A stretch of DNA of 32,000 nucleotides from positions 29,319 through 61,318 of the forward strand of contig CAZMZH010000007.1 in assembly GCA_964570665.1 (NCBI GenBank), in the 5' to 3' direction. Below the pieces are notes generated by a model. It worked only from the letters and a program-made list of their open reading frames with translations. It was not told the origin of the DNA and did not search any database. Shown piece by piece: positions 511 to 32,000 of the stretch; the stretch's first letter is position 1, and every line of letters begins with the position of its first letter. The position numbers were made by a program, and so were the translations under genes. Origin of the DNA: an uncultured Nitrospinota bacterium. Its GTDB lineage: Bacteria > Nitrospinota > Nitrospinia > Nitrospinales > JAJDAT01.

Positions 511-580
511 TTATCACTCCAATATATATTTTCAAAAATTTATAATTTTTTAAAAAACAAAATCAAAAAAATTCTAGCGA

Positions 581-4132: not shown

Positions 4133-4684
4133 CTAACTATTCTCCTTTTGTTGCAATTTTTCTTTCAGTTGTTTCAATTTTTCAAACCTTGGATCAATGG
4201 CGGCATTTTCGCCGCATTTGCATTGAGATTCGTTTAAATTTTGACCGCAATCCGAACACAACCCCAGGCAATCTTTTTTGCACAATTGAATCATTGGCAA
4301 AGCTAACATAATGGCATCGCGAACAGAAGCAGCTAAATTGATTTTGGAATCTGTATAAAATTCCGCATCAATTTCTTCTTCCAATGTTTGCCTTTCCATT
4401 TCTAATTCGTTCGCCGAAGGCTTTGGAATAAATCTAGCAAAAACTTCGGTTTCCGCTAAAAACTGAAAAGGCGCCAGGCAACGGGAACATAAAAGCCTTA
4501 AATCAGCTTTCGCTTTCCCTCTAAAATAAATTTCTTTTTTAAATAGCTTTAATTCACCTTTAACGGCGACTGGTTTTTCTAGAACGCAATCATTTTGATT
4601 TATTTCAAATAGTTCCGCATTTGCGGAAACATCCAAATTAAACCCACTGCTTGGAATTCGGTTTATCTCAAATTCCATGATCAC
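4133..4684 (-). CDS. yceD: YceD/DUF177 family protein (large-subunit rRNA accumulation protein)
   Basis: 183 aa. Has a Cys cluster (CSRCL...CKKDCLGLCSDCGQNLNESQCKC) and conserved placement directly upstream of rpmF. Confidence 0.8.
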   Translation of the reverse strand: MIMEFEINRIPSSGFNLDVSANAELFEINQNDCVLEKPVAVKGELKLFKKEIYFRGKAKADLRLLCSRCLAPFQFLAETEVFARFIPKPSANELEMERQTLEEEIDAEFYTDSKINLAASVRDAIMLALPMIQLCKKDCLGLCSDCGQNLNESQCKCGENAAIDPRFEKLKQLKEKLQQKENS

Positions 4685-5383
4685 ATTTAGGAAAGTTGAT
4701 TAAAGCCCAAAATTATAGAAATACCTGGTGAGGCAAATTTTTATTTTATCTATTTCCCTTATCCTAGTCAAGCCAATTACTTTAATAAAATAAAGAGGTT
4801 AGAGACAAGCTTTTGAGGCTTTATAAATAAATATATAGTGGGGAATTAAAATATCTAAATTTAAGTATATGGGCGAAATTTATCCTGTATATCCAGAAAG
4901 CAGGTTTAAGCGATATGTGTATAAATATGAGCGGTAAAATTATCGAAAAGACAAACTTTTGCTGGGATAACCTTAAAATGTGCTAACCCTCGATAACGGC
5001 TAGTATCATCTCTGGAAACTATTCCACAAAGTTCTTTCCTTTTTAAATTCAAACTATTAATTAATTTGGAGAAATTTTTAATAAATAAAACTGGAAAGGC
5101 CTGGATAGTGATAATTATATTTCCATATATACTATAGAGGCAAAAAATTAATACTTAAGAGGGACAAAAAAGATTAAATTTTTCATATCAGAACCTTATT
5201 CAAGAAATTTTTCCAAATTTTAATAAATTTAATTTATTTTTCTGAAGAGGCTGATTGGATGACAGTATTATGATGTACGCGAAATGATACTTGATTAGGC
5301 CATTAGAGATCCATTACCTCCTCACACTTTTAGTCGCTTATTTCTTTTTTTAATTTAACAATCAAGACTAATACAAAACCAAA

Positions 5384-7099: not shown

Positions 7100-7280
7100 T
7101 AAATTAAAGATTTATTACCTATACTGTATTTCGATTTTTTATGGATACAGGATAACTAAAAACAAAATCAATAACCGTTTAAATTTCTTTTTCTATAAAA
7201 CTCTTGGAAGTTATAAAACGTCAAAAAACATTTTATTGATAATATCCTCATTATTCGATTTGAAATAAACCAAATTTTTT

Positions 7281-8981: not shown

Positions 8982-9056
8982 CTTATCCGATATTTTAATA
9001 TTTATGAATTAATCAAAGTTACTAAAGATTATTTATATTAGGTTTTAAAAGTCTGA

Positions 9057-9953
9057 TTATGGACGTGGGTGATATTTTTCATGTATTTCACGCAAGCGCG
9101 TTTGCATAACATGTGTATAAATTTGAGTCGTGGAAATATCAGAATGACCCAACATTTGCTGAACCGACCTTAAATCGGCTCCCCCTTCCAATAAATGAGT
9201 CGCAAAAGCATGGCGAAGTGTGTGTGGAGATACAGGTTTTTTGATACCCTCTATTAAGGTATATCTTTTTATAATTTTCCAAAAACCCTGACGAGTCATT
9301 GCTTTACCCCGCCGCGTTAAAAATAATTCTGAAACATTGCGTCCTTTTGTAAAACCGGGACGCGCTCTTAAAACATAATCTTCTACGGCATGCTTGGCAG
9401 CGTCTCCTATTGGAATCAGACGTTCTTTCGAACCCTTCCCAAAAGCTAAAACAAAGCCCATTTGCAAATTAACTTTAGAAGCTTCAAGGTTGATTAGTTC
9501 TGAAACCCGCACCCCAGCCGCGTACAAGATTTCCAACATAGCTTTATCCCGGAGTCCTTCTTGTGTTTTTAAGTCGGGCGCGTTTATTAACCGATCAACT
9601 TCTTCCAAACTCAATACATCAGGAAGTTTTTGTAAAAGCTTAGGCGTTTCTAGTAATTCGGCAGGATTTTTATCGGTGATTTTTTCTTGAATCAAGAATT
9701 CGAAAAACGACCTAATAGACGATTGTAATCTGGCAATTGACCTTGTAGACAGCCCACTCTGCCGAAGCTTTAATAAAAATTCTCTAATATTATTAACGGA
9801 AATATCTTCTAAACGATCGTTTTTAAATTCATTGGCGAATTTGTTCATATCTCTTCTATAAGCTTCCGTCGTGTTTAACGAGCGACGCTTTTCGATTGAA
9901 AGATAATCAACAAATTCTCTTATATAATGTTGCAATTCTATCCTCAGTTCCAA
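9057..9953 (-). CDS. xerD: site-specific tyrosine recombinase XerD/XerC family
   Basis: 298 aa. C-terminal catalytic region HTLRHAFATHLLEGGADLRSVQQMLGHSDISTTQIYTHV, with an N-terminal SAM-like core-binding domain. Confidence 0.85.
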   Translation of the reverse strand: MELRIELQHYIREFVDYLSIEKRRSLNTTEAYRRDMNKFANEFKNDRLEDISVNNIREFLLKLRQSGLSTRSIARLQSSIRSFFEFLIQEKITDKNPAELLETPKLLQKLPDVLSLEEVDRLINAPDLKTQEGLRDKAMLEILYAAGVRVSELINLEASKVNLQMGFVLAFGKGSKERLIPIGDAAKHAVEDYVLRARPGFTKGRNVSELFLTRRGKAMTRQGFWKIIKRYTLIEGIKKPVSPHTLRHAFATHLLEGGADLRSVQQMLGHSDISTTQIYTHVMQTRLREIHEKYHPRP

Positions 9954-18924: not shown

Positions 18925-19091
18925 GATTCTATCTTACCTTCCATAAAAATTATCCTTTTTCAAAACCAGGTCAATTCTACAATATATTAAGGAAATAATG
19001 TGAACGGGAATAAATAACGAAGAATTAAACTATATTTAAAGGTAAAGTTAATTGTTTAAAGAAGAATTTCCTTATATTGAATTATTCATTT

Positions 19092-20057
19092 TCAAAGAGA
19101 CACTCCTTGATTTTCGGCCGCATATGCTTGAAGGAAAAAAATCACCGTTTCATGTCCCTTTTTTAGAGCGTAATCTAAAGCGGTAAATCCCGCCTTTGTT
19201 TTGATATTTAAATTAGCCTCGTTAGTTATCAACCGCTTGACCGTTTTATCATGTCCATTAATAGCCGCAATATGCAATGGAGTGAAACCTTTATTTGTCT
19301 TTACGTTTACGTCAGAACCGTGTTCGACAAACCATTCGATCAAATCATAGTGTCCTCTTTCAGCGGCCATGTATATAGGAGTGTAACCGCCCTTGGCTTT
19401 CTGGTTTAGTCGAGCGCCCTTCCTCGCCAAAAGTTCAATGATTTCTTTATAACCATCTAAAGCGGCTAAATGCATTGGGGTGTAATTTCCATTGTTTTTT
19501 GAATTAACATCGGCTCCTTCTTCAATCAACTTTTCCGCTAACTTTATATGCCCTCCCTTAACTGCGTAATGCAAGGGCGTACCTATCTTATCGCTCACTG
19601 CATTTAACTCGCTACCTCTTTCAATTAGCACTTCAACAACTGAATTTTGCCCCAAACTTGCCGCCATGTGTAAAGGCGTAATCCCTTCAAGAGTTTTTGC
19701 GTTTAGATTGCAACCTTTATTAATCAGCAGCATTGCAATAGATTCTTGATCGTTATTTATTGCAATATGAAGAGGTGAAAATCCGCTTTTACTTTGCGTA
19801 TTAATGTCTGCGCCGTTTTCAATGAGTTTTTCGGCGACGCCTAAATGTCCGTTAAATGCCGCAAAATGCAAAGGAGTGAACCCCTCTTTGTTTACTTCGC
19901 TAATTTTCTCCCCTTGTGCGATCAATTGCCGAACTGGGTAAAAATCTCCAATTGTCGCCGCATCATGAAGAGGGCTAGCCCACGCAGATTTAACCATTGA
20001 GACAAAAATGCACGCAACCAGCGGGAAATAGATCCAAAATTTAAAAAACCTTGTCAT
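19092..20057 (-). CDS. secreted ankyrin-repeat protein
   Basis: Signal peptide (..SMVKSAWA/SP), then about 8-9 ANK units such as GFTPLHFAAFNGHLGVAEKLIENGADIN. Confidence 0.9.
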   Translation of the reverse strand: MTRFFKFWIYFPLVACIFVSMVKSAWASPLHDAATIGDFYPVRQLIAQGEKISEVNKEGFTPLHFAAFNGHLGVAEKLIENGADINTQSKSGFSPLHIAINNDQESIAMLLINKGCNLNAKTLEGITPLHMAASLGQNSVVEVLIERGSELNAVSDKIGTPLHYAVKGGHIKLAEKLIEEGADVNSKNNGNYTPMHLAALDGYKEIIELLARKGARLNQKAKGGYTPIYMAAERGHYDLIEWFVEHGSDVNVKTNKGFTPLHIAAINGHDKTVKRLITNEANLNIKTKAGFTALDYALKKGHETVIFFLQAYAAENQGVSL

Positions 20058-20213
20058 TACGGTTTCCTAAAAAATATCTGAATAGTTGTAAAAAAAATCA
20101 CTTTCACACGGGATCAATTCTACAATAATTTTAGACCGTATGGGATTGCTTTAATGATAGAAAGAGGAAGGAAATACTAATTTATATTAATAGCGCTAAT
20201 TCAAAAATTATTC

Positions 20214-20759
20214 TTACTTGTAAACGTTAAACGTTTTAGAAAATAACAATCTATTATCCTGAAATATAGTAATAGTATAAAGTCCAGGTTTATCTTTTGT
20301 TTCATGCTGAATAAAGAATTGTCCCGCTTTGAGTTTAACTGGAAAATCCCAAGGAAAAGTTTGTTTCTTCTCGATTGTGGCGTATTCCATTTTTAAAGGG
20401 ACAAAATCATTAGGGCCGCCATTCAAAGCGACCCAATACACTCCAAATTTTTTTCCAAAAGGTATTTCTACTTTTGGAATTACCCTAAATTCCCCACCCT
20501 TGTTAAGAATTAATGTATCGTCTTCATTTAATTTTTGTTCTTCTAAAGTCTTGGAGTTTTTAATGGTTTCGACCAAACCATAAGAAAAATGTAATTTAAT
20601 AATTTTCCCATTTGAAGTTCTAACCTCGCTAATGGATTCTGATTGAGTATAAGTTAAAGAACGCGAGGTTTTAGCTTTAATAATTGATTGAGAAAAAGCA
20701 AAAGGCAAAAGGATTAAAAAAGATAAAACCTGTATAAATACTATTAAATAGATCTTCAT
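20214..20759 (-). CDS. secreted hypothetical protein
   Basis: 181 aa with an N-terminal signal-like segment (LLPFAFSQS). No motif recognised. Confidence 0.5.
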   Translation of the reverse strand: MKIYLIVFIQVLSFLILLPFAFSQSIIKAKTSRSLTYTQSESISEVRTSNGKIIKLHFSYGLVETIKNSKTLEEQKLNEDDTLILNKGGEFRVIPKVEIPFGKKFGVYWVALNGGPNDFVPLKMEYATIEKKQTFPWDFPVKLKAGQFFIQHETKDKPGLYTITIFQDNRLLFSKTFNVYK

Positions 20760-20955
20760 ATATTTTAAATTTTTAAAGCAATAGATAAGGTTTAAAAAAT
20801 TATATCTTCACTAATTTATATCAGTACTTAATTATTAAATCCGACAATTCCGCCTGCTATAACCTATACACCCACGTTAATTAAGCAACCCAAATCCAAA
20901 CCAAAAACAGTTCCAATAATAATGGATGTAGAAGACATGGCTAATCCAAAACACT

Positions 20956-21312
20956 TTAAGACAATGCCCATTTTTCTTTGGCTAATTTAATGGCTTTTTC
21001 ATCATTATCGGAAAATTTCCATCCGTTTCTTATTAAACTCCTTCCGCTAATTTTATTTCCTTTAATGGATAAAAAAATATTCATAGAAATTTGGACTCCA
21101 TAACCGTAAAATTCTCCAAAATTAAGTTCAATTTCAGGAAACGAGGCGATAGCAAAAACCAAAAGAAAAAATCCAGCCTCAACAAATTGTCTTCTTACTA
21201 AAAAAACTAAAACCCCAAATATTAAAAATCTAATACTAAAACCAACGGTTAATTTTTTTTCTTTATTCTGAGTAGCGTTTTTTAGTTTAACAAAGGGATT
21301 ATTATCCTCCAT
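20956..21312 (-). CDS. small membrane protein, hypothetical
   Basis: 118 aa with two central hydrophobic helices. No motif recognised with confidence. Confidence 0.45.
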   Translation of the reverse strand: MEDNNPFVKLKNATQNKEKKLTVGFSIRFLIFGVLVFLVRRQFVEAGFFLLVFAIASFPEIELNFGEFYGYGVQISMNIFLSIKGNKISGRSLIRNGWKFSDNDEKAIKLAKEKWALS

Positions 21313-21370
21313 TGTTAGGAGTTTGCTGCCAAATTTGTAAATAATTAATACTTCTTTCTCTCATGGAAAA

Positions 21371-21700
21371 CTAAACTTGAAGATTTGCTTTAGGCGTCTT
21401 TGATTTTTGGGAAGAGTTAAATAACTTAATATCTTTGAGATCTCCACCCTTTTCTTCGGCAACTTCTAAGTCGTATTTCTGTTGTAGATTCAACCAGATT
21501 TCTGGACCTGTTCCAAAAAACTTTCCTAATCGTCTAGCGGTATCTGCAGTAATATCTCTTTGCCCATTCAAGATTTGATAAATTCGGTTACTAGGCACAT
21601 TTAGAGCTTTAGCAAATTGATTGCCATTCATTTCAATTTCTTCCAGCTCTTCTGCCAATATTTCTCCGGGATGTATAGGAACTCTCCAATCATTCGCCAT
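21371..21700 (-). CDS. higA: HigA-family antitoxin (XRE HTH), pair 1
   Basis: IHPGEILAEELEE...NRIYQILNGQRDITADTARRLGKFFGTGPEIWLNLQQKYDL matches the HigA/VapI pattern. Lies 11 nt downstream of higB. Confidence 0.9.
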   Translation of the reverse strand: MANDWRVPIHPGEILAEELEEIEMNGNQFAKALNVPSNRIYQILNGQRDITADTARRLGKFFGTGPEIWLNLQQKYDLEVAEEKGGDLKDIKLFNSSQKSKTPKANLQV

Positions 21701-21711
21701 GTTTTTATCCT

Positions 21712-21990
21712 TTAATGATAGTCGACAATTTCCACATCAAGAGCATAGCCATCTTCCCATTTAAAACAAATACGCCACTGATCGTTTATCCTGATACTAT
21801 ACTGGTCTTTTCGATCTCCTTTTAACGCTTCAAATCGATTTCCTGGTATAGCGACCAAAGCCCCCAAAGTTGGGGCGGTCTCCAAAACACGAAGTCGCGT
21901 TAGCGCTTTTCGTGCAATGGGTTTAAATTTTTTTACAAATTCACGGCCATAAAGCTTTTCCGTGTTTTTACATTTAAAACTCTTAATCAT
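21712..21990 (-). CDS. higB: HigB-type (RelE/ParE superfamily) toxin, pair 1
   Basis: 92 aa, MIKSFKCK...RFEALKGDRKDQYSIRINDQWRICFKWEDG...VEIVDYH. Toxin-first gene order is typical of higBA. Confidence 0.9.
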   Translation of the reverse strand: MIKSFKCKNTEKLYGREFVKKFKPIARKALTRLRVLETAPTLGALVAIPGNRFEALKGDRKDQYSIRINDQWRICFKWEDGYALDVEIVDYH

Positions 21991-22006
21991 TCAGCTTTGG
22001 AAACAG

Positions 22007-22027
22007 GATTAACGTACTACGTCAATC
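22007..22027. promoter_or_regulatory. 10-1-10 palindrome, candidate HigA operator upstream of higB-1
   Basis: gattaacgta c tacgtcaatc has one mismatch between arms. It lies 17-37 nt upstream of the higB-1 ATG (21990). Confidence 0.45.
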
Positions 22028-22091
22028 GTAGCAAAAAATAGTTTATCAATCAATTTTCAATTGCTATTTATTCAAGTAAAACAACTGCAAC

Positions 22092-22385
22092 GGGCTCTGT
22101 AGCAGTATAACCCGCTTTCGTCCAACTCGCCTCCGGTCTAATGCAATCGATTGCCGTTTTCATTGCCGGTTTCGGTAATCAATTCGCCAAAAGGACCTAC
22201 TGCATCGTCGCTTGCGCGCTGCCTAACGATTCCACCAGGGACGTGACCGATCGTAAATGGTCGTGATGATAGGTCGCGGCGGTTTCGTTCCCGCTAGAAT
22301 TATAATGCAACCCATGCACCACCTCGTCCACCACCACGCCGCGAAAGTATTGATCCTCCAATTGAAATGTCTGGTAGTAAACGAA
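22092..22385 (-). pseudogene. Rhs core remnant (about 290 bp, frameshifted)
   Basis: Aligns by eye with 23350-23650 and 30400-30700 (..QTFQLEDQYFRGVVVDEVVHGLHY..HDHLRSVTSLVESLGSAQATMQ..). A 1-nt deletion turns TACGGT into TAGGT, giving a stop. It ends at the YYYRA-coding stub. Confidence 0.85.
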
Positions 22386-22426
22386 GTAAAAAATAATATC
22401 TCCATTTAAAAATCAAAATGCACAAA

Positions 22427-22455
22427 TTGACAAACGTCATTTGACATTTTACAAT
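22427..22455 (+). promoter_or_regulatory. sigma70-type promoter of higBA-2, probably giving a leaderless mRNA
   Basis: TTGACA (22427-22432), 17 nt, TACAAT (22450-22455). The higB-2 ATG at 22462 is only 6 nt after the -10 box, with no Shine-Dalgarno. Confidence 0.55.
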
Positions 22456-22461
22456 TAGAAA

Positions 22462-22740
22462 ATGATTAAAAGTTTCAAGCATCGTGGATTGAAAAAGTTT
22501 TTTGAGGATGGTGATTCTCGAAAAATACCACACGATATGTTAGATCGAATACGTTTAATTCTCGCTCGTCTAAATACTGCCCGAAACCTTGAAGCTATGA
22601 ATATTCATTCCTATCATTTGCATGAACTCAAAGGGAATCGCAAAGGAACTTGGAGCGTTACTGCTCGGGCTAATTGGCGGATTACTTTCCGATTTGAAAA
22701 TGGGGACGCTTTTGATTTAAATTTTGAAGATTATCATTAG
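22462..22740 (+). CDS. higB: HigB-type toxin, pair 2
   Basis: 92 aa, MIKSFKHRGLKKFFEDG...HLHELKGNRKGTWSVTARANWRITFRFENGDAFDLNFEDYH. Distinct sequence from pair 1. Confidence 0.9.
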   Translation: MIKSFKHRGLKKFFEDGDSRKIPHDMLDRIRLILARLNTARNLEAMNIHSYHLHELKGNRKGTWSVTARANWRITFRFENGDAFDLNFEDYH

Positions 22741-22752
22741 AAGGAAAAAAAC

Positions 22753-23073
22753 ATGGCCATTAAAAAATATCAAATGAAAAATCCACCTCACCCTGGATTA
22801 GGCGTGAAAGTTGATTGTTTAGAACCTTATGGATTGAGTATTACTAAAGGCGCAAAAATATTAGGTGTTACGAGACAAACCTTAAGCCTTCTGGTCAATC
22901 AAAAAACATCCTTATCGTGGGACATGGCAATCCGGCTTTCGAAGGCCTTTGGATCAACCCCAGAAGGATGGATGGAATTACAATTTCAATATGATTCCGC
23001 ACAAGCCGTTAAACGCGCAAAAAAAATAAAGGTGACCCCCTATCAGGGATCACTAGAACCCGCTTATCAATAA
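22753..23073 (+). CDS. higA: HigA-family antitoxin (HTH), pair 2
   Basis: PHPGLGVKVDCLEPYGLSITKGAKILGVTRQTLSLLVNQKTSLSWDMAIRLSKAFGSTPEGWMELQFQYD. Confidence 0.85.
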   Translation: MAIKKYQMKNPPHPGLGVKVDCLEPYGLSITKGAKILGVTRQTLSLLVNQKTSLSWDMAIRLSKAFGSTPEGWMELQFQYDSAQAVKRAKKIKVTPYQGSLEPAYQ

Positions 23074-23074
23074 T

Positions 23075-23210
23075 GGATCTTCCGTTAAGAACCTTCCGAC
23101 CTCCGGATCGTAATAGTGTGCTCGGTAGTAATATACTGAGGCCCATTCAAGTCCAAAGCTTAAAAAACTGTCCGCCTGAGGCTCTCGAAGGCCGAGCGGC
23201 GGAATACGTT
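23075..23210 (-). repeat. rhs-locus leader repeat copy R1 (truncated) with a 63-bp rhs core stub
   Basis: 23075-23137 encodes YYYRAHYYDPEVGRFLTEDP on the minus strand. 23138-23210 matches 25398-25466 of copy R2, including the hairpin ctgtc.gcctgaggctctcgaaggccgagcg. Confidence 0.8.
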
Positions 23211-24207
23211 ATTCCAAAATGATGAATTAGCGAAAGGAGCCCGCTAGGATCACTAGCATTTATTGGATTATTTTCTACATAAGCATAGAAATTAATTCCA
23301 GCACGGAAACCCATGGAATCTTCCGTTAAGAACCTTCCGACTTCCGGATCGTAATAGCGGGCTCGGTAGTAGTATAACCCGGAATCGTCCAACTCGCGTC
23401 CGGTGTAATGCAATCGGTTGCCGTTGTCGCTGCCGGTTTCCGTTATCAATTCGCCAAAAGGACCGTACTGCATCGTCGCCTGTGCGCTGCCTAACGTTTC
23501 CACCAGGGACGTGACCGACCGTAAATGGTCATGGTGATAAGTTGTCCCGCTTTCGTTCCCGCTAGAATCGTAATGCAACCCATGCACCACCTCGTCTACC
23601 ACCACGCCGCGAAAATATTGATCCTGCAATTGAAATGTCTCGTCATAAATCGCTTCTAAATGCTCCCCTTCTAAATAATAGTTCCGCGTATTAAACCCTC
23701 CATCATTATTCTTGATGCGGTAATCGCTCGGATCGTATTTAAAATAAAACGATTTACCCGGAGTCGACATTCCCGTCACTCGGTTTTTTTGATCGTAAAC
23801 AAAACTCTGTAGAGTCGTGTCGTCGACATTTCGCTTGGTTAATCGATTGCCGTTAGAATCGTACTCGTATTTGGCGACCAAAGGACCCATAACGCTGCCC
23901 TGGCGCACTTCCATTAACTGATTATTGACGTTATAAACGTAAACATGAACGACGCCGTCTTTCGTATGAGTCAATCGATTTCCCACCTTATCGTACGTAT
24001 AAGCATGATCGTTTGCGGTATTTGGCGCTTCCACTCCGATCAAACGATTGAGACTATCGTAGGTATAAAATGTGGTTCCTTCCCCTCCCTGGGGTCCAAC
24101 AGAAACGGTTGTGATATTTCCCACTTTGTCGTAAGTGTACAACGTACGGCTTATTTCCGTTCCTCCTAAACCTTCGTTGACCAAAGACGTCAACCGATTA
24201 TCGGCGT

Positions 24208-24243
24208 CGCACCTCTTGAGCTTGCCCTGAGCTAGCCGAAGGG
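24208..24243. repeat. GC-rich hairpin mini-element inserted in the rhs body
   Basis: cctcttgagcttgccctgagctagccgaaggg is translated as PSASSGQAQE in the upstream ORF. The flanking Rhs-like sequence (..RILSND / DADNRLTSL..) continues in a different frame. Confidence 0.65.
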
Positions 24244-24681
24244 TCGTTTGACAAGATACGATTCACCAATCGTCCCGCTTCGTCGTAGAAATAAGAAACC
24301 TGAACGTGATCCGAATTACTCTGCGCGATCAACCGATTGGCGGAGTTGTATTGATAATTCGTCGTCTTTCCCTGATAATCGGTTTTGGTAGCGACGTTGC
24401 CAACTTTATCGTAAGTCCAACTGAGAGTTTTGTTGGTTGTGGCGCCATTGTGATCGAGCCGTTCGTCGTTTTTACTAATCAAACGATTCTGCTGGTCGTA
24501 GGTGAACGAATAGATGATGCCGCCATTAGCAACCTGTTGCAAATTGCCAAAACTATCGTAAGTGCGCAGTTCCTGTTTGCCGTCATTATAAAAATCGGTA
24601 AATATCAACCGATTCAAGGTGTCGTACGCAAAGAAAAAGTTGTGACTGTAACTATAATAACAGTTATCTAGTCTGAAATAC

Positions 24682-24709
24682 TTGACCCCAAAGCTGTGTT
24701 TGGTAAAAT
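24682..24709 (+). promoter_or_regulatory. candidate sigma70 promoter flanked by CTAGTCT/AGACTAG inverted repeats
   Basis: TTGACC (24682-24687), 16 nt, TAAAAT (24704-24709). ctagtct at 24668-24674 and tagtct-t-agactag at 24715-24728 bracket it. Confidence 0.3.
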
Positions 24710-24715
24710 AAATAT

Positions 24716-24851
24716 AGTCTTAGACTAGTGTCCTGCGGTAGGTGGGTTAAAGGTCGTAGCTTTGGCAACGCCCCGCCCAAAGTAGGGAACTGGGGGTCGG
24801 TTTTCTCTTTACTGCTTCGGCAGTCGCTTGAAAGCTATCCCCCATTTTTTT
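24716..24851 (+). ncRNA. candidate roughly 135-nt structured small RNA, convergent with the 124-aa ORF
   Basis: Lies between the candidate promoter and a terminator-like structure. Contains a perfect ACTGC-TTCG-GCAGT hairpin (24811-24824). No convincing ORF. Purely structural inference. Confidence 0.2.
24791..24851 (+). terminator. terminator-like structure (TGGGGG...CCCCCA stem enclosing a UUCG hairpin, then T7)
   Basis: tggggg (24791-24796) pairs with ccccca (24839-24844), followed by ttttttt (24845-24851). The T-run overlaps the stop codon of the convergent ORF 24850..25224. Confidence 0.35.
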
Positions 24852-25224
24852 AGAACGTCGAAATCAAAAACAATTTTTTATCCTTCCCCTCTTTTTGCTC
24901 GCGTATGTGGATGGTAACGACTATTCCTTTTGACGTGATCCCTTTAAACTCGTTGGAAATACCCATCTGATCCCGTTTTTGATCAGTTAAATCCTTTTTT
25001 CTAACTTTCGCAATTAACTCTAATCCAACAAAGAAGCGACGTTTCCTTCGAGTTCGGTCATTACGGTCATTTGTGATTGCAAGATATCTATCTAAAAAGA
25101 CAGTTCTCTTTTTTCCTAACCCGTTAAAATTAATCCGACCTTCGATTTGTTCAATTTTTTGGTTTATCAGATCGTCCAGCGATTTTCCTTTTTGCGTTGC
25201 AATTTCCGTTTTCAACTTAAGCAT
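24850..25224 (-). CDS. basic 124-aa hypothetical protein in a cassette slot of the rhs array
   Basis: Open frame directly downstream of leader copy R2. Lys/Arg-rich (..NDRNDRTRRKRRFFVGLE..; ..VVTIHIREQKEGKDKKLFLISTF). No family recognised. Confidence 0.5.
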   Translation of the reverse strand: MLKLKTEIATQKGKSLDDLINQKIEQIEGRINFNGLGKKRTVFLDRYLAITNDRNDRTRRKRRFFVGLELIAKVRKKDLTDQKRDQMGISNEFKGITSKGIVVTIHIREQKEGKDKKLFLISTF

Positions 25225-25364
25225 GGAGCGAATTGTACAGCGAAATTAACGCAAACAAAAGCATCCTTTCTCTCTTTTGATTATGACAACAAGCAAGAAT
25301 TAAATTAGTAAACCCAGGCTCACCATGAGAGCGCTGATAGAAGAGAAATAATATGACTGATTTC

Positions 25365-25590
25365 GGAATCGTAATAGCGGGCTCGGTAGTAATATACAGA
25401 GGCTCATTCAACTCCAGAGCTTAAAAAACTGTCAGCCTGAGGCTCTCGAAGGCCGAGCGCCATACGTTAAAATAAAACGACTCCAAAACTTCCAATCAGT
25501 TACAAACCAATTTTCCCAATAAAATTAATTAGCTGTCATCCTTGAGTGAAGCGAAGGATCTACCCCAATGCGGTTTTAGAATTAATTTTC
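25365..25590 (-). repeat. rhs-locus leader repeat copy R2
   Basis: Core stub 25365-25397 (YYYRARYYD-coding). Hairpin elements at 25431-25459 and 25535-25560. Conserved blocks ccaatcagttacaaaccaattttcccaataaaa and ccccaatgcggttttagaattaattttc are shared with R3-R5. Confidence 0.85.
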
Positions 25591-25717
25591 TTATTAATCC
25601 AAAAGTAGTTTTAGCTTAATTTTAAAATGAAATGAAGATGAAAGTTTGTACCTATACATCCTATTTCCTTAATGTTTCCTTCTTGCTGACCTGATAAAGG
25701 AAGAGTATAATTTCCTC

Positions 25718-25987
25718 ATGGCTACTATTACAATCAAATTGGACATTGACAAAAAAGAACAAGGTTGTCTTTTCGAAGTCGACGAAAATGCAGAGCGACA
25801 AATAGAAAAAGAACGTCAACGTTCTGGCAAGGATCGCGATGCAATTATTCTTGACATAGCCCAACGAACACTCTCTCTAATGGAATTCAATGCTATTCGG
25901 GAAGAGTTAGCTCCCTATGCTGAAAAAGCAAATTTGAGCGAAGAAGAAATACTCGCTCTGCCAAGAATGTCTTCAAAAAATAGCTAA
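25718..25987 (+). CDS. putative antitoxin partner of a PIN toxin (VapB-like, possibly RHH)
   Basis: 89 aa. N-terminus MATITIKLDIDKKE resembles an RHH beta-strand start. Lies 12 nt upstream of a PIN gene. Confidence 0.55.
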   Translation: MATITIKLDIDKKEQGCLFEVDENAERQIEKERQRSGKDRDAIILDIAQRTLSLMEFNAIREELAPYAEKANLSEEEILALPRMSSKNS

Positions 25988-25999
25988 CCGATAAAGTAC

Positions 26000-26410
26000 G
26001 TGAGAGTTTTTTTTGACACGAACGTATTGGTGAGCGCTTTTACTAGCGGGGGAATATGCCTTAATCTAGTAAAAAGAACAATTGAAGACACGCAACACAA
26101 CCTGCTCGTAGGCACAGTTATTATTGACGAGCTAAGTCGGATTTTGACTCACCGGTTTAACTACCCTCCCCAAAAATTAGATCGCGTAATAGCCTTCCTA
26201 ATTAAATATAGGGCAATACTTATGCCCAAAACAAAGCCTCCCGTTTCTGTCCGCGATCCCGATGACGAACTGGTGCTCGCCTCTGCGCTGGAAACAGGAG
26301 CAGACATTCTAGTTACAGGAGACAAAGATCTACTAATACTGGGCGACACAGCGGGAATTAAAATAGTAGACCCACGCATGCTTTGGGAGATGTTGACAAA
26401 GGAAGATTAG
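26000..26410 (+). CDS. vapC: PIN-domain toxin (VapC-like, TIGR00305-type)
   Basis: GTG start. MRVFFDTNVLVSAF..., ...DPDDELVLASALETGADILVTGDKDLL gives the acidic PIN residues in the expected order. Confidence 0.85.
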   Translation: MRVFFDTNVLVSAFTSGGICLNLVKRTIEDTQHNLLVGTVIIDELSRILTHRFNYPPQKLDRVIAFLIKYRAILMPKTKPPVSVRDPDDELVLASALETGADILVTGDKDLLILGDTAGIKIVDPRMLWEMLTKED

Positions 26411-26437
26411 CGCATCCGGATTCCTAATCGTCAAATC

Positions 26438-26682
26438 AGGCTCTGTAGTAGTATACGGAAGCTCATTCCATAAGGCAGCCCCGCTTCCGGGCTCTAAAAA
26501 AATGTCACTCTGAGCCTGTCGAAGGCCGAGCGTCGGACGTTAAAATTAAATTACCTCTCTCCCGCCCCAGCCTGTCCTGAGCGAAGCCGAAGGATCTAGA
26601 CCAATTTTTCCAATAAAATTCATTAGCTGTCATCCTTGAGTGAAGCGAAGGATCTACCTTAATGCGGGTTTTGGCTTAATTC
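26438..26682 (-). repeat. rhs-locus leader repeat copy R3 (longest, three hairpin elements)
   Basis: Degenerate core stub aggctctgtagtagtatacgg. Hairpin elements at 26504-26532, 26573-26597 and 26629-26655. Shared blocks as in R2. Confidence 0.8.
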
Positions 26683-26806
26683 TTATTGATTTCAATCGTA
26701 CTATATACGCTATAACATTCAGTACAAAATCCTAACTTGATTGTTTATTTACGAATATTCCCGTAAAATAATTCTATTAAGCTTTTTTGTTACCGGAGAT
26801 TAGGGA

Positions 26807-27052
26807 ATGCCAATTAAAATCCTAGAGCATGTCAAAGCCCAGGAACTTCCAAAATCCTGGAAAAAGGAACTAAATCCCAGCCCCGAGGAAACGTTTCGAA
26901 TTACTATTGAACCCGAAAGCGAGCTGACTGACGAGCCGTTTGACGTAACCCATGATCCTATCTTTCAATTAGAAGGATATGACTCAGATGCGCCTTCTGA
27001 CTTATCTAAAATTTCAGATAAGTTACTTTATGGAAAAAACCATCCTGCATAA
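26807..27052 (+). CDS. putative VapB-like antitoxin
   Basis: 81 aa. Its stop overlaps the PIN gene start (TAATG). The acidic C-terminus ..DPIFQLEGYDSDAPSDLSKISDKLLYG resembles tails I recall from PIN-associated antitoxins. Confidence 0.55.
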   Translation: MPIKILEHVKAQELPKSWKKELNPSPEETFRITIEPESELTDEPFDVTHDPIFQLEGYDSDAPSDLSKISDKLLYGKNHPA

Positions 27053-27459
27053 TGGAAACGGTTTTCCTGGATGCAAATGGGTGGATCGCCCTTTCAAATA
27101 AAAGGGATCAATTAAACGCTAAAGCGGTTAATCGTAATAAAGAACTCCTTCAAAATCAGACTCGCTACCTAACAACCAATTTCGTTCTAGACGAAACCTA
27201 TACCACACTCATGGCAAAGGTAGGAAACTTTGCGGCTGTGGACTTCGGCGAAAGAGTCAGAAACTCAAAATCCGTCACGATTGTTCACATCTCTCCAGAA
27301 ATCGAAGAAGAAGCTTGGCAACTTTTCAAAAAATACTCCGACAAACAATTTTCTTTTACAGACTGCACTTCATTTGTTGTGATGCAAAGATTTAAATTGG
27401 AAAAAGCATTCACAAACGACCATCATTTTGAACAAGCAGGATTTTCAATTCTGTTATAA
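27052..27459 (+). CDS. vapC: PIN-domain toxin (VapC)
   Basis: METVFLDANGWIAL..., ..NFVLDETYT.., ..FSFTDCTSFVVM.., ..FTNDHHF follow the PIN acidic residue pattern. Confidence 0.85.
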   Translation: METVFLDANGWIALSNKRDQLNAKAVNRNKELLQNQTRYLTTNFVLDETYTTLMAKVGNFAAVDFGERVRNSKSVTIVHISPEIEEEAWQLFKKYSDKQFSFTDCTSFVVMQRFKLEKAFTNDHHFEQAGFSILL

Positions 27460-27534
27460 TCAAATTTTATAAACCAAATCCGTTTGCGAGAGAAACCTCA
27501 AAACTCCTTTTACAAAAAAACACTTAATCTAAGT

Positions 27535-27700
27535 GGGCTCGGTAGTAATATACGGAGGCAGAAGAACGCCGTACACTAAAATTAAACTTCTCCATTGCCT
27601 CCAATCAGTTACAACTTAATTTTCCCAATAAAACTCAATACCTGTCATCCTCGAACGAAGTGAAGGATCTACCCCAATGCGGTTTTGAAATTAATTTTCC
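27535..27700 (-). repeat. rhs-locus leader repeat copy R4
   Basis: Core stub gggctcggtagtaatatacgg. Lacks the first hairpin insertion. Hairpin element at 27644-27670. Shared terminal block ccccaatgcggttttgaaattaattttcc. Confidence 0.85.
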
Positions 27701-27775
27701 TTCTGGTTCAGAAGAAGTCTATGAGTAAAATTTTATAATTAAAGAAATGAAAAATATTTCTGGAAAAGATTAATT

Positions 27776-28090
27776 TTAGTTGTCTGGAAGGTTATATTCT
27801 TTTTTAGCATATTCAAAAGAAACTACTGATAAACGAAATGGCCCCAGCCCATGCATTGCACTATGGGGATATGTGTATTCCCAATATCGCCCCTTAAACC
27901 ATTCTCTATATAAAATATGAAAACCACCAGGTGCATCAGCAATCTTTTTCAGGAAAAATAGTCTAAAAAATTCTAATCTTCTTACGTTTTCACTCACTAT
28001 TCTTCCATTTATGACTTCCCAATCTTGATCAAGCTTGGTTTCACCTTTTGTTATTTTAAAAAAAATCTTTAAATATAAGTTTTTTAACAT
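27776..28090 (-). CDS. putative immunity protein for the decayed Rhs tip CT2
   Basis: 104 aa. Starts 21 nt after the CT2 stop. The segment GRYWEYTYPHSAMHGLGPFRL resembles, from memory, the W-E-x-x-Y-P-x-S-x-x-H-G-G-G-P signature of a small polymorphic-toxin immunity family (Imm27-type). Confidence 0.6.
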   Translation of the reverse strand: MLKNLYLKIFFKITKGETKLDQDWEVINGRIVSENVRRLEFFRLFFLKKIADAPGGFHILYREWFKGRYWEYTYPHSAMHGLGPFRLSVVSFEYAKKEYNLPDN

Positions 28091-28111
28091 GTCAAAAAGT
28101 TTAAAGAGAAA

Positions 28112-28884
28112 TCACTTTGAATAAACTTGTTGCATCATATTATTATTTGGCTTGTTTGGGTAGATTACAAAACCACCTTGTGCAGGTTCGCCCTGACTTA
28201 CCGCATTAATACCAAACCCAATTCCCGAAGCTCTATCTGAGACAATTCGGCCAGTTGCATCACTTGGAATAGAACCATTTGGAACAACGAACTCTCGTGC
28301 TCCACCCTGAGTAAATCCTCCATCTATAAACCCTGGTTCAGTACGATTTCTTGGAATATCAAGTTTAGAAAAGTTGCTTGAAGAAAATTCAAAAAGATGA
28401 AAAGATCCAGGATTCTCAATTATTAGTCGTTCAGCAATTTATTGAGCACTATTCAATCCCTCTAATGCTCCTGCGTCAGCAACAAAAGCATCTGGTCTCG
28501 TTTTTAAATTTAAAAGAAAATCTGGATTGAGGTCTTTAGAAGGAATTGTACGAACTAGATTTTCAGGTATACCGCTCCTTGTAAAAGTGGACGTACAGCT
28601 TGCCCACCGCCAGTAACAAAAGGAATTAATGCACCGCCAACGTCTAAAAGCAATGCAACTCCGTTTGTTAAAGTTAACCCCTCTTCGGCTATAAAAGCGA
28701 GATCGGCAACAATAAATCCTATATCCAATAATGTGTCTGCAAAGTTTCCTGTAGGATCATTTGCGTTAATTGGGTTATTGTGGACATATGCATAAAAATT
28801 AACTCCGGCCTTAAATCCTACAGGATCCTCAGTTAAGAACCTTCCGACTTCGGGATCGTAATAGCGGGCTCGGTAGTAATATAC
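28112..28884 (-). pseudogene. orphan Rhs C-terminal tip CT2 (core stub, PT-TG-like pre-toxin region, unknown toxin domain), disrupted
   Basis: Manual translation gives SVYYYRARYYDPEVGRFLTEDPVGFKAGVNFYAYVHNNPINANDPTGNF-ADTLLDIGFIVADL..LLLDVGGALIPFVTGGGQAVR.. There is then a frameshift near 28560-28610 and an in-frame TAA at 28439-28441. It ends ..GGFTQGGAREFVVPNGSIP..GGFVIYPNKPNNNMMQQVYSK. No start codon; an in-frame TGA lies just upstream. Confidence 0.8.
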
Positions 28885-29014
28885 GGAGGCAGAAGAGCGT
28901 CATACGCTAAAATCGAATTTAGCCAATGCATCCAACCAGTTACAAACAAATTTTTTCAAAAAAAACACCAATCTAAAATTTTGACCCCAATGCGGTTTTA
29001 AAATTAATTTTCCC
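28885..29014 (-). repeat. rhs-locus leader repeat copy R5 (no hairpin insertions)
   Basis: ggaggcagaagagcgtcatacgctaaaat...ccaaccagttacaaacaaatttttt...ccccaatgcggttttaaaattaattttccc is collinear with R4 and R2 minus their hairpin elements. Confidence 0.8.
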
Positions 29015-29075
29015 ACTTAAACAGAAACGATTTTGGTTTATTTTTTCGATTAAAAAAAGAAGGGAGTAAGTATTT

Positions 29076-29615
29076 TTAAGAACTAGAACTTTTTAGCGAA
29101 GAATTTTCTTTAGAAGTTTCTAATTTACTCTCTTTTAGTATTGAAGCAATTTTAGAATAATCAGAACCTATTTTTTTTCCAGCCCAATCAGAATAAACAT
29201 ATTTTAACTTATTATTATTTTCTGAAATAATTATCGAAATTGAATGATCAACTAGAAATTTTTTTTCATATAAGACATCAATGATCTTATTTCTTTCAAT
29301 TAACATTAAATAAGTCAATGAAGTTACTCCAAACAACACATACTTGCTAGTAATCGCTATTCCAAAATGACCAAGAATTAGGGGATCAATATCTTTTCTA
29401 ATTTTTTTACCATTTGATTCACTATATATCTTGAGGACACCTCGACGAACTCGGAAGATCACTTTGTCTTCAAGGTTTTTAATTAATTTATGCCCCAGTA
29501 AAATTCGGGTAATTCCAATAAAACCATAATCTAAGAATACTATCAGAACAATTAATGGAAATATTGCTTCGAGCCAAAAATCCCAACTCACAATCATTTC
29601 TTTTAGGTAGCTCAT
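29076..29615 (-). CDS. membrane protein, putative immunity protein for Rhs tip CT1
   Basis: 179 aa with an N-terminal TM helix (AIFPLIVLIVFLDYGFIGI) and a central hydrophobic segment. Lies 83 nt downstream of the toxin stop on the same strand. Confidence 0.6.
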   Translation of the reverse strand: MSYLKEMIVSWDFWLEAIFPLIVLIVFLDYGFIGITRILLGHKLIKNLEDKVIFRVRRGVLKIYSESNGKKIRKDIDPLILGHFGIAITSKYVLFGVTSLTYLMLIERNKIIDVLYEKKFLVDHSISIIISENNNKLKYVYSDWAGKKIGSDYSKIASILKESKLETSKENSSLKSSSS

Positions 29616-29698
29616 TTAAAAAACTAAAGTCTCAAAAAAATTAGATATTATTGAATAAATTACTGTACTAAAACTTTTTATCTCGAAAATACTTTTTC

Positions 29699-30844
29699 CT
29701 ATTTACTATACACTTGTTGCATAAAATTATTATTGGGTTTATTAGGATAGATCACAAATCCCCCTCCAGCGCCACCGGAATTAGATTGAGCGTTTCCAGT
29801 AAAAAAATTGGAAATACTATTGAATAAATTCTTTGCTCCATCAACAAAATCTCCAATAGCGTTGCTTCGAAAAGCCGATTCAGTATTCGTTATTGTAGGA
29901 CCTACTTCAGGAGTATTAATTCCAAAAGGAGAAAGACCAAACTCGAAAAATGCTTGAACATTATCTTTGGTGCTGGTGGTTGGAAATGTTGCCCCAAATG
30001 TAAAACTTCGCTTTTGAGTAATGGGAAATGATCCGCTAATAGACCTTGATCTACCCTCAAGGTTATCTAGCGTAGTATTTTCATTGCCAAATAAAAAGTT
30101 AACAAACAATCCACCACTCTCGCTTTGTCCTGAAAGGACTCCCCCTTCTTCATGTTGGGTAAAAATACCAAACTCCAATGTTTCCGTATCGATGGCAACA
30201 ATAGTACTTACAGAACCTTTTGCCCCAACTCCTTCGGGAGCAAAACCACCACCGCCTCCAAAATTGAAACCAACAGGCCTTTTCCCAGCTGGATCGTTAA
30301 AACTGATTGGGTTATTATTTACATAAGCATAAAAATTTGGTCCGGCTTCGAAACCTAAAGGGTCTTCAGTGAGGAAGCGGCCAACCTCAGGATCGTAATA
30401 GCGGGCTCGGTAGTAGTATAACCCGCTTTCGTCCAACTCGCGTCCGGTGTAATGCAATCGATTGCCGTTGTCGCTGCCGGTTTCCGTTATCAATTCGCCA
30501 AAAGGACCGTATTGCATCGTCGCCTGTGCGCTTCCTAACGATTCCACCAGGGACGTGACCGACCGCAAATGATCGTGATGATAGCTCGCCCCTGTTTCAT
30601 TACCGCTAGAATCGTAATGGAGCCCGTGCACCACCTCGTCCACCACCACGCCGCGAAAATATTGATCCTGCAATTGAAATGTCTGGTCGTAAATCGCTTC
30701 TAAATGCTCCCCTTCTAAATAATAGTTCCGCGTATTTAATCCTCCATCATTATTCCTGATCCTGTAATCGCTCGGATCGTATTTAAAATAAAACGATTTA
30801 CCCGGAGTCGACATTCCCGTCACTCGATTTTTTTTATTTTCCAT
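29699..30844 (-). CDS. Rhs fragment: last about 187 aa of the RHS core plus a 194-aa Gly/Ser/Thr/Phe-rich C-terminal domain (CT1) of unknown function
   Basis: Core part is collinear and nearly identical to 23330-23790 (..GLYYYRARYYDPEVGRFLTEDPLGFEAGPNFYAYVNNNPISFNDPAG). CT1 spans 29702-30283. The ATG at 30844 coincides with the point where rhs homology begins, so this is an N-terminally truncated module. Confidence 0.8.
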   Translation of the reverse strand: MENKKNRVTGMSTPGKSFYFKYDPSDYRIRNNDGGLNTRNYYLEGEHLEAIYDQTFQLQDQYFRGVVVDEVVHGLHYDSSGNETGASYHHDHLRSVTSLVESLGSAQATMQYGPFGELITETGSDNGNRLHYTGRELDESGLYYYRARYYDPEVGRFLTEDPLGFEAGPNFYAYVNNNPISFNDPAGKRPVGFNFGGGGGFAPEGVGAKGSVSTIVAIDTETLEFGIFTQHEEGGVLSGQSESGGLFVNFLFGNENTTLDNLEGRSRSISGSFPITQKRSFTFGATFPTTSTKDNVQAFFEFGLSPFGINTPEVGPTITNTESAFRSNAIGDFVDGAKNLFNSISNFFTGNAQSNSGGAGGGFVIYPNKPNNNFMQQVYSK

Positions 30845-30962
30845 TATTAATCACAAAAAGGCTTGATACTACTAAATGTTTCAATTTGAGAAAAGGAAGG
30901 AAATAAGTTAAAATCTGGAGCTTTTATTCCGTACTTTTTGAAAGGTTTTAAGGTTTCCTAAT

Positions 30963-31958
30963 ATGTCTGGAATCACTTTAGTTCAACATATCCGCGCGCA
31001 GGAACAGAAATCCCCTGGGGCTACCGGAGAATTCTCAGGTTTAATGAACGATGTACTGGTCGCGGCAAAACTAGTTTCGCGCGAAGTCAATCGCGCTGGT
31101 ATCGCCGAAGATATTATTGGATTGACGGGCGAAGTGAACGTGCAAGGCGAGGAAGTTCAAAAACTCGATCACTATGCGAATGAAACCTTTATTAAAGTGC
31201 TTTCTCAATCTGGCAAAGTTTGCGCTATAGGCTCTGAAGAAAACGAAAACGCAGTTATAGTCCCTAAAGACCAACAAACCAGCGGTAAATACATATTTAT
31301 GATGGACCCACTGGACGGCTCTTCAAATATCGACGTGAACGTAGGAATTGGGACCATTTTTGCCATTTATGAAAAGAAAAGTTCTGGCGATACGGTTACC
31401 GATGAAGACTTATTACAAAAAGCCGATCAACAAGTTGGAGCTGGTTACGTTCTCTATGGTTCCAGCACAATGTTTGTCTATACCACAGGTAACGGAGTTC
31501 ATGGTTTTACGCTCGATCCCGCTATCGGAGAATTTTATCTTTCTCACCCAGATTTAAAAATTCCCTCAAAAGGTTCCATTTATAGCGCCAATGAGGGAAG
31601 CGTATCCTTCTGGAACGACAAACAAAAAGCTCTTGTCCAATACTATAAAGAAACGGATAAAGAAACCGGCAGGCCTTATAAATTACGCTATATCGGAACT
31701 CTGGTGTCGGATTTTCACCGAACTCTTCTTAAAGGCGGTATTTTTATGTATCCTGGGGACAGTAAAAGTCCCAATGGGAAACTAAGGTTTGCGTTTGAAG
31801 CCGCTCCCTTAGCTTTTATTGTCGAGCAAGCCGGCGGCAAAGCGAGCGATGGGAAGTCCAATATTTTTACTCAATCGCCCACTGAACTTCACCAAAGAAT
31901 TCCACTTTTTATCGGCAGTAAGGAAGATGTTGAGTTAGCCGAAAAAAAATTGCAGTGA
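30963..31958 (+). CDS. fbp: fructose-1,6-bisphosphatase class 1
   Basis: 331 aa with DPLDGSSNIDVNVGIGTIFAIY and GKLRFAFEAAPLAFIVEQAGGKASDG motifs. Confidence 0.95.
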   Translation: MSGITLVQHIRAQEQKSPGATGEFSGLMNDVLVAAKLVSREVNRAGIAEDIIGLTGEVNVQGEEVQKLDHYANETFIKVLSQSGKVCAIGSEENENAVIVPKDQQTSGKYIFMMDPLDGSSNIDVNVGIGTIFAIYEKKSSGDTVTDEDLLQKADQQVGAGYVLYGSSTMFVYTTGNGVHGFTLDPAIGEFYLSHPDLKIPSKGSIYSANEGSVSFWNDKQKALVQYYKETDKETGRPYKLRYIGTLVSDFHRTLLKGGIFMYPGDSKSPNGKLRFAFEAAPLAFIVEQAGGKASDGKSNIFTQSPTELHQRIPLFIGSKEDVELAEKKLQ

Positions 31959-32000
31959 TTTGACGAGAACTCTGAAATCTTTTGAATACTAAAAAAATAA

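Follow-up and report, generated by a model that had tools for sequence, protein, structure and literature searches.

The 32,000-nt stretch of contig CAZMZH010000007.1 analysed here (the window), which comes from an uncultured Nitrospinota bacterium, contains a repeated element composed of a non-coding leader of about 130 nt fused to a short piece of rhs core coding sequence, the stub. Our analysis shows that the region is a minus-strand orphan Rhs cassette array with toxin-antitoxin modules in its slots, spanning positions 30844 to 22091, and suggests that in this Rhs C-terminal displacement (orphan) array the repeat is probably the inherited junction unit, its copies held alike by homologous recombination. 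The leaders are the spacers between cassettes, which contain either a toxin tip and an immunity gene or toxin-antitoxin pairs (PIN, HigBA, ParDE). Each leader lies 3' of an immunity gene or toxin-antitoxin module, and the core stub of the following cassette is fused to it. An initial annotation of the same DNA had described the repeat without recognising the array and had displayed it on the plus strand, whereas both the array genes and the leader-stub units read on the minus strand.

The leader is AT-rich and is found in a single orientation. Repeat search and alignment recovered all five copies of the initial annotation at the positions given there; R1, however, retains no more than the 3' third of a leader (insert H3 and the junction), leaving four full copies and one partial copy in the window. 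Leader and stub are fused at an identical base in every window copy. The view that the unit ends in an Rhs core stub was borne out, since the stubs translate to the Rhs core end (VYYYRARYYDPEVGRF) and a 381-amino-acid (aa) fragment of the array matches TIGR03696. The best-conserved leader block, TTAATTNNAAAACCGCATTGGGG, occurs three times in the window when none is expected from shuffles, and the 30-nt stub occurs five times at three or fewer mismatches when none is expected by chance; two of these five matches (23348-23377 and 30392-30421) are core-borne and carry no leader. The leader had also been judged to be something other than leftover core coding sequence, and this stands: in R5 an in-frame TGA lies six codons 5' of the stub (...FDFSV*RSSASVYYYRARYYDPEVGRF), with no start codon in between. 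The R5 stub extends as 132 nt of core-end coding sequence (28883-28752) that is homologous to the core-borne copies, while the stubs of R4, R3 and R2 are cut after about 22, 46 and 40 nt, respectively. Full leaders differ in the number of GC-rich inserts present at three fixed sites, and the original counts agreed with the alignment: none in R5, one in R4 (H1), two in R2 (H1 and H3), and three in R3 (H1, H2 and H3). The units of the window, all on the minus strand, are the following:

28885-29014, minus strand: leader R5, insert-free type (alignment; nhmmer, 105.8 bits).
28752-28884, minus strand: R5 stub and core-end coding sequence (VYYYRARYYDPEVGRFLTEDP...NDPTG), start-less (repeat families D3 and D5; stub match; translation).
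27554-27700, minus strand: leader R4, insert H1 only (alignment; nhmmer).
27532-27553, minus strand: R4 stub, ending after 22 nt (sequence; alignment).
26457-26682, minus strand: leader R3, inserts H1, H2 and H3 (alignment; nhmmer).
26411-26456, minus strand: R3 stub, degenerate (repeat family D5; alignment).
25398-25590, minus strand: leader R2, inserts H1 and H3 (alignment; nhmmer).
25357-25397, minus strand: R2 stub, about 40 nt (repeat search; stub match).
23137-23210, minus strand: leader R1, partial, H3 insert and junction (alignment; repeat family D10, 91% identity to R2).
23075-23136, minus strand: R1 stub, VYYYRAHYYDPEVGRFLTEDPLLISG (stub match; translation).

The orphan organisation is seen in the R5 cassette. 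There, the 3' end of the core with its conserved motif lies directly 5' of a variable tip, without N-terminal core and without a start codon of its own, and the tip is followed by an immunity gene (Imm27) and then by leader R4. In turn, R4, R3, R2 and R1 are followed by toxin-antitoxin modules or by an uncharacterised open reading frame (ORF), not by a tip with immunity gene. The lead gene of the window is the 5'-truncated 381-aa fragment; the array of the related genome OFTM166 instead follows a 1119-aa Rhs. With its 5'-truncated lead gene and its pseudogene R5 tip, the window array is a relic.

In JGI metagenome 3300009703, the window corresponds to contig Ga0114933_10000047. The genomes closest to the window are metagenome-assembled genomes (MAGs) of Nitrospinales and Nitrospinia, and the backbone of the leader is conserved among them, with seven further leader-stub units in the Rhs arrays of two other Nitrospinia genomes. 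Three units belong to the Nitrospinales MAG GCA_038154245.1 (locus L004), at a syntenic island adjoining the FBPase gene (about 81% nucleotide and 89% protein identity between window and L004). The other four belong to the Nitrospinia MAG OFTM166 (loci L011 and L010, contiguous), where they follow the 1119-aa Rhs, a protein with 13 RHS-repeat matches, and are accompanied by tips and small ORFs (putative immunity genes). In a third relative (L005-L009), the same flanking genes enclose just a small core fragment and a single ORF, and a profile search found no leader there. In addition, two metagenome fragments carry the start of a leader, after a Barstar gene in L002 and after a UPF0175/DUF3368 toxin-antitoxin pair in L003. 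In the alignment of 13 copies the stub was joined at the same base in all 11 full units, which come from three genomes, and the insert-free and insert-bearing leader types were each present in two or more genomes. In the more distant Rhs loci L013-L015 (about 58-60% protein identity), one stub is present per locus and there is no array.

A profile of the leader backbone run over approximately 160 kb matched at array positions and at the leader-start fragments of L002 and L003 only. An exact scan of genome contigs for the block M1 gave no matches because the relatives differ by one or two bases, and the junction pattern then found the two genomes; viral contigs searched with both patterns gave no match. 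A derivation of the leader from the region 5' of full-length rhs or from the flank of a minimal island was rejected, with no profile match in L011 1-270 or in L005-L009. Note also that fragment L002, a 1.1-kb contig of the JGI metagenome contig series Ga0114932, encodes a TPR-S protein and Barstar (145-1081, minus strand) and that its leader start has 96% identity to R2. The fragment represents a further cassette type, or a further array, of the same lineage.

Three cassettes common to different genomes switch context at or inside the leader-stub unit. The ParDE cassette is preceded by genuine core in OFTM166 and by leader B in L004, and the switch falls exactly at the start of the stub. For the HigBA cassette of the window and L004 (85.8% identity), homology starts about 14 nt 5' of the stub, and the leader types upstream differ. 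The UPF0175/DUF3368 pair and the leader start that follows it are common to L004 and L003 (91%), with homology stopping inside insert H1. These breakpoints are joined by mosaic leader pairs. Copies O_b and O_d share an identical tract of 137 nt that covers the stub and the 3' half of the leader, whereas about one in five aligned positions differs between their 5' halves; N_A and N_B form the converse mosaic, with nearly identical 5' halves and different H3 types.

Breakpoints of this kind also bear on whether the leader is a site-specific recombination site, attC-like as in integrons or Xer/dif-like, within an integron-like cassette array. The array is unidirectional, with a repeated element between cassettes; its junction is uniform to the base, and its toxin-antitoxin cassettes occur in either orientation, as they do in chromosomal integrons. 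However, the breakpoints are scattered over leader and stub instead of falling at one point, and on neither strand does the insert-free backbone fold better than shuffles (z -0.1 to +1.5, RNA parameters), nor is there consensus pairing in 13 copies, so that no attC-like imperfect palindrome is seen. Furthermore, no integrase was found among the ORFs of positions 19000-32000. The sole tyrosine recombinase, XerC/D-like (9057-9953), lies about 9 kb from the nearer edge of the island and is syntenic in L005, whose island has no leader. An attC/dif-like site was rejected on the lack of a palindrome and of an adjacent integrase, and we consider this reading of the leader very improbable.

The pattern of sequence conservation is the other line of evidence for the recombining junction unit. 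Backbone identity among 10 well-preserved leader copies ranges from 58 to 92%, reaching 86% in the best pair between window and OFTM166 and 69-78% between window and L004. Synonymous third positions, pooled, are identical at a frequency of 0.70 in stub codons 2-15 and of 0.44 in codons 16-45. For reference, four-fold sites of housekeeping genes between these genomes are 0.43-0.46 identical, near saturation, and the convergent intergenic region between HisRS and FBPase (329 nt) cannot be aligned between window and L004. At 70-86% identity, the leader equals the synonymous sites of the early stub (0.70) in conservation. Slow divergence is therefore confined to the leader and about 42 nt of stub, a segment that every unit has, even where a toxin-antitoxin module truncates the stub. 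Such a pattern is consistent with homogenisation of this segment through recombination or gene conversion. The breakpoint at the stub start and the raised synonymous identity of codons 2-15 point only indirectly to a possible recombination of orphans with the main gene via the common core. Among the roles offered for the repeat by the initial annotation, that of a recombination substrate is consequently the one that breakpoints between genomes, mosaic leader pairs, and the equal conservation of leader and early stub support.

Shared age alone could also be invoked for this similarity. The unit would then be inert debris of an old duplicated array in decay, its copies alike only by recent descent or lateral transfer, with neither ongoing recombination nor function. 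The window relic is compatible with decay, given its 5'-truncated lead gene, its tip with a frameshift, its truncated stubs, and an insert that splits a core fragment. Similarly, four-fold sites of HigA are 0.64 identical between window and L004, compared with 0.43 for FBPase, which suggests that array DNA is younger than the split of the hosts or was laterally transferred. Yet leader copies diverge as much within genomes as between genomes, and the duplications are therefore old. Neither the synonymous drop after stub codon 15 (0.70 to 0.44) nor the identical 137-nt tract in an otherwise diverged leader pair is expected from simple shared age, and we regard debris as an improbable account of the unit.

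The leader and the synonymous sites of the early stub are conserved well above neutral, and a regulatory region, whether a promoter alone or one with a 5' untranslated region, that transcribes each orphan cassette, its immunity genes and perhaps internally translated toxins would also leave such a signature. This role can coexist with recombination; we judge it rather unlikely. In Salmonella, a promoter within the core-coding sequence transcribes main as well as orphan rhs tips and is kept upstream of many tips, and this element, P2, resembles the leader in its core-end coding position 5' of many different tips (PMC7043789). The -10 box of P2 (TACAAT, H-Y-N codons) aligns with the Y-Y-Y codons at the leader-stub junction (PMC7043789, S2 Fig), and the leader-borne stub start, GTATATTAC, contains TATATT. 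The leader backbone is moreover AT-rich and unstructured, and a possible promoter, ATGACA-18-(TG)GAAAAT, is formed from the end of H1 and block M2 in R2, R3 and R4, directed toward the stub. However, this sole leader-linked site is weak (9/12), depends on H1, and is absent from insert-free leaders, and a sigma-70 consensus scan of positions 22000-31000 returned 20 promoter-like sites compared with 21.8 expected from shuffles. The Salmonella -35 box sits in core coding sequence, a stretch that is replaced here by the leader. No -35-like hexamer was seen 16-18 nt 5' of TATATT in any leader type when the sequences were read by eye, and the scan reports no site there. The comparison with P2 gave no clear case for homology, as the -10-like hexamer alone is in common. 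Inserts of 30-55 nt between conserved blocks would change promoter geometry, and in the three full window units with toxin-antitoxin modules after the stub a promoter would drive antisense transcription. As judged from these scans and alignments, the leader offers no convincing promoter.

Being conserved and non-coding in appearance, the leader might also encode a small RNA, or even a small protein, since R5 has a 39-codon ORF (GTG...TGA) in the frame of the stub. This ORF is not conserved: the TGA at AACTGA is in frame in most other copies and inserts shift the frame, and a small ORF was rejected on these interruptions. As for RNA, Rfam returned nothing at gathering score, nor with E relaxed to 1, and RNAalifold on 13 copies returned -0.83 kcal/mol with 6 pairs and no compensatory change, and was also negative on 3 copies. 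The suggestion of the initial annotation that the unit could encode an RNA thus found no support, as far as structured RNA is concerned, in the covariation check or in Rfam, and was discarded, the single-sequence folds being equally negative. We hold a leader-encoded product to be hardly credible.

With the recombining junction unit as the preferred interpretation, a mechanism can be outlined that follows the model proposed for enterobacterial rhs arrays, in which homologous recombination acts via the common core through a circular intermediate (PMC2935791). Read on the minus strand, a cassette opens with the stub and the core end, continues with a variable toxin tip and the immunity gene(s), and closes with the leader, after which the next stub follows at once. 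The stub, which encodes the best-conserved end of the Rhs core, would be the homology for recombining a silent tip onto full-length rhs, and the leader would be the non-coding 3' flank of the preceding cassette, fused to the stub once, at one base, and co-copied since, presumably with no further role. Excision between two stubs would release a circle (stub-tip-immunity-leader), and a single crossover of this circle into the core end of a resident rhs would regenerate the order leader, stub and old tip. RecA-type recombination and gene conversion could in this manner add, remove, exchange and homogenise cassettes, both inside a genome and from one genome to another, and would be the likely cause of the conservation described above. 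Toxin-antitoxin modules would be replacements of toxin tips, exchangeable by the same route. Because the same leader and about 40 nt of stub bracket every slot, ordinary RecA-type recombination can move cassettes; with the leader as the presumed circle-closing segment fixed to a minimal stub, the homology that brackets every slot amounts to 150-300 nt.

A number of points weigh against this interpretation. No circular junction was observed, and the window itself lacks a full-length rhs that could serve the orphans as recombination partner. Leader and early stub are conserved far above neutral sites, and DNA-level selection on an element that straddles the junction (e.g., a promoter) fits this conservation equally well. 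The comparison is based on a small sample, three genomes with leaders and two short metagenome fragments, and with a profile scan covering about 160 kb, leader copies may exist at unrelated loci. Finally, the strain-level contigs retrieved by exact-protein look-ups were only short, were 100% identical to the window, and ended in repeats.

Slots of the arrays hold toxin-antitoxin modules, a Barstar gene, and a defence-like Metallophos gene with SLFN/AlbA_2. A more far-reaching possibility, which we entertain with considerable doubt, is that leader and short stub constitute a selected portable docking module, an integrase-free platform from which gene pairs that have landed could be exchanged across Nitrospinia via circles; the leader might then supply a promoter for displaced cassettes as self-contained units of toxin-antitoxin type. 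Note that in L004 the slot between the Rhs tip and leader A (7193-8875) is occupied by a Metallophos phosphoesterase and a SLFN/AlbA_2 protein and not by a small immunity gene. The array may here have captured a gene pair of defence type.

The arrangement is a variant of the known orphan Rhs array, not a new system. As in the enterobacterial arrays (Jackson et al. 2009, PMC2935791; bioRxiv 10.1101/2025.05.08.652813), promoterless and start-less tips lie 3' of rhs, and each tip carries a 3' piece of the core with the conserved motif and is followed by an immunity gene. In enterobacteria, however, the retained core fragments vary in length (PMC2935791), whereas here 11 units from three genomes have the same minimal stub at one base on a leader of about 130 nt. 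Our literature search found no description of a shared non-coding spacer for the enterobacterial arrays and no paper mentioning both Nitrospina and Rhs. What is unusual here is the conserved non-coding leader on a uniform minimal stub, the presence of toxin-antitoxin modules in several slots, and the Nitrospinia host. The type VI secretion effector-immunity arrays of Vibrio cholerae (Kirchberger et al. 2017, PMC5361080) are similar in that old modules are shunted downstream by incoming ones, exchange occurs by homologous recombination, and the array looks like an integron without an integrase. They differ in that immunity genes are kept with 3'-end remnants of effectors, and in the accessible part of PMC5361080 no conserved inter-module spacer repeat is described, such as the one present here. 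Overall, the array is instructive as an example but does not amount to a new principle.

Orphan Rhs arrays are regarded as stores of silent toxins, which bacteria reshuffle when they compete, and the movement of tips is mostly inferred from enterobacteria. The array described here provides a clean natural marker of this movement, a spacer on a minimal core stub that is present in three genomes related to marine nitrite oxidisers. Its mosaic tracts, and a DNA-level conservation limited to the spacer and the first 14 stub codons, are the pattern predicted by recombination-driven exchange. The array also reveals that Rhs arrays can take up toxin-antitoxin modules. If the leader carries a promoter or is needed for exchange, it would offer a handle for a direct test of the circular-intermediate model.

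The inserts that distinguish leader types measure about 30-55 nt, longer than the 25-35 bp first reported, and share the motif CCTTCG...CTCAGG...GACA. They had been taken for hairpin elements that colonised the repeat, and neither part of this description was sustained. The inserts fold no better than shuffles (z -1.1 to +1.2); the stem of H1 has 6 bp (-2.5 kcal/mol, z -0.4), and 'hairpin' is therefore a generous name. True hairpins or stable palindromic stem-loops were rejected on these shuffle-level folds. The insert family is also present outside the array, in intergenic DNA of the window and of related loci and inside rhs coding sequence, with motif copies outside leaders at window 10016 and 24224; L004 4096, 5944 and 10067; L005 8233; and L011 2515. 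Within leaders, inserts occupy the same three sites in different genomes and therefore look inherited with leader types, not repeatedly inserted. On this alignment evidence, it is more fitting to regard them as marking leader types that were inherited and exchanged than as products of repeated colonisation. They resemble REP (repetitive extragenic palindromic) and MITE (miniature inverted-repeat transposable element)-like repeats in being short, GC-rich units with a common motif and scattered copies, and differ in having no stable palindrome; terminal inverted repeats and target duplications are not established. Mini-inserts within Rhs core coding sequence lie at window 24213-24250, L004 5944-5961 and 10067-10084, and L011 2515-2533. 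Those of L004 are in frame (adding ...STGSGQAQDG...), while that of the window splits the core ORF.

The cassettes and core fragments bracketed by the leaders are, in array order:

29699-30844, minus strand: Rhs core fragment, 5'-truncated, with C-terminal toxin tip, 381 aa (ORF; TIGR03696 Rhs_assc_core, E 2.8e-25).
29076-29615, minus strand: ORF of 179 aa occupying the immunity position in the first cassette, without family match (ORF; family search).
28100-28751, minus strand: orphan toxin tip, pseudogene (one frameshift, one in-frame stop), with the conserved tail at its end (three-frame translation).
27776-28090, minus strand: Imm27 immunity gene of the R5 cassette (PF15590, E 1.4e-6).
26807-27459, plus strand: toxin-antitoxin cassette, 81-aa antitoxin and PIN toxin, antisense to the array (PF01850, E 4e-11).
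25718-26410, plus strand: toxin-antitoxin cassette, 89-aa antitoxin and PIN_3 toxin, antisense to the array (PF13470, E 7e-15).
24850-25224, minus strand: 124-aa ORF between the R2 stub and the split core fragment, without family match (family search).
23147-24617, minus strand: Rhs core fragment in two ORFs, toxin tip deleted (RHS_repeat, E 1e-9).
22462-23073, plus strand: HigB/HigA cassette, antisense (Pfam; 85.8% nucleotide identity to L004 9207-9932).
22091-22381, minus strand: another Rhs core fragment, distal end of the array (repeat families D1 and D4).

The 381-aa fragment adjoins the FBPase gene and holds the core-borne stub at 30392-30421 and the tail GGGFVIYPNKPNNNFMQQVYSK. The core fragment at 23147-24617 is split by the GC-rich mini-insert at about 24213-24250 and holds the other core-borne stub (23348-23377). 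In L004, a HigBA cassette homologous to that of the window follows leader A. A second HigB/HigA pair of the window (21371-21990, minus strand) is oriented opposite to that at 22462-23073 (plus strand), and the two pairs flank the last core fragment. Overall, four toxin-antitoxin modules (two HigBA and two PIN pairs) are found within 6 kb of the toxin array.

Otherwise unrelated Rhs toxin tips end in a common tail of about 21 aa, GGFV[IL]YPNKPNxN[MF]MQxVYSK. The tail has no Pfam or NCBIfam match, and the motif string was not found in a literature search. It is encoded in the window at 29699-29765 and 28100-28178 (both minus strand), in L004 at 7014-7086, in L010 at 803-875, and in L011 at 3555-3630, 4676-4728, 5653-5719 and 7310-7385. 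Of 120 database Rhs fragments, 21 have it as well, and MAGs labelled Burkholderiales, Chloroflexota and Thermodesulfobacteriota are among them.

Two independent short-read assemblies of the same organism, L017 (window 26629-27564) and L019 (window 22317-23375), break inside leader-stub repeats. Arrays of this kind will be fragmented or collapsed in most metagenome assemblies.

Adjoining the 124-aa ORF, a GC-rich stretch at 24625-24850 (plus strand), located between the cassette of R2 and the split core fragment, folds at -72.2 kcal/mol (z -3.3, with none of 200 shuffles better). It has no Rfam match and no homologue in related loci, and it contains a promoter-like site at 24682-24709 (TTGACC-16-TAAAAT) and a 3' stem followed by a T run. 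From the predicted fold, this stretch is possibly a small RNA and is listed as a candidate. Elsewhere in the window, a segment of about 4790-9050 has no counterpart in the syntenic relative L005. Within it, positions 5384-8981 (plus strand) are low in GC (26-32%) and contain two ORFs, paralogues of about 570 aa each, whose matches are weak and TPR/Sel1-like; this segment is probably an inserted island.

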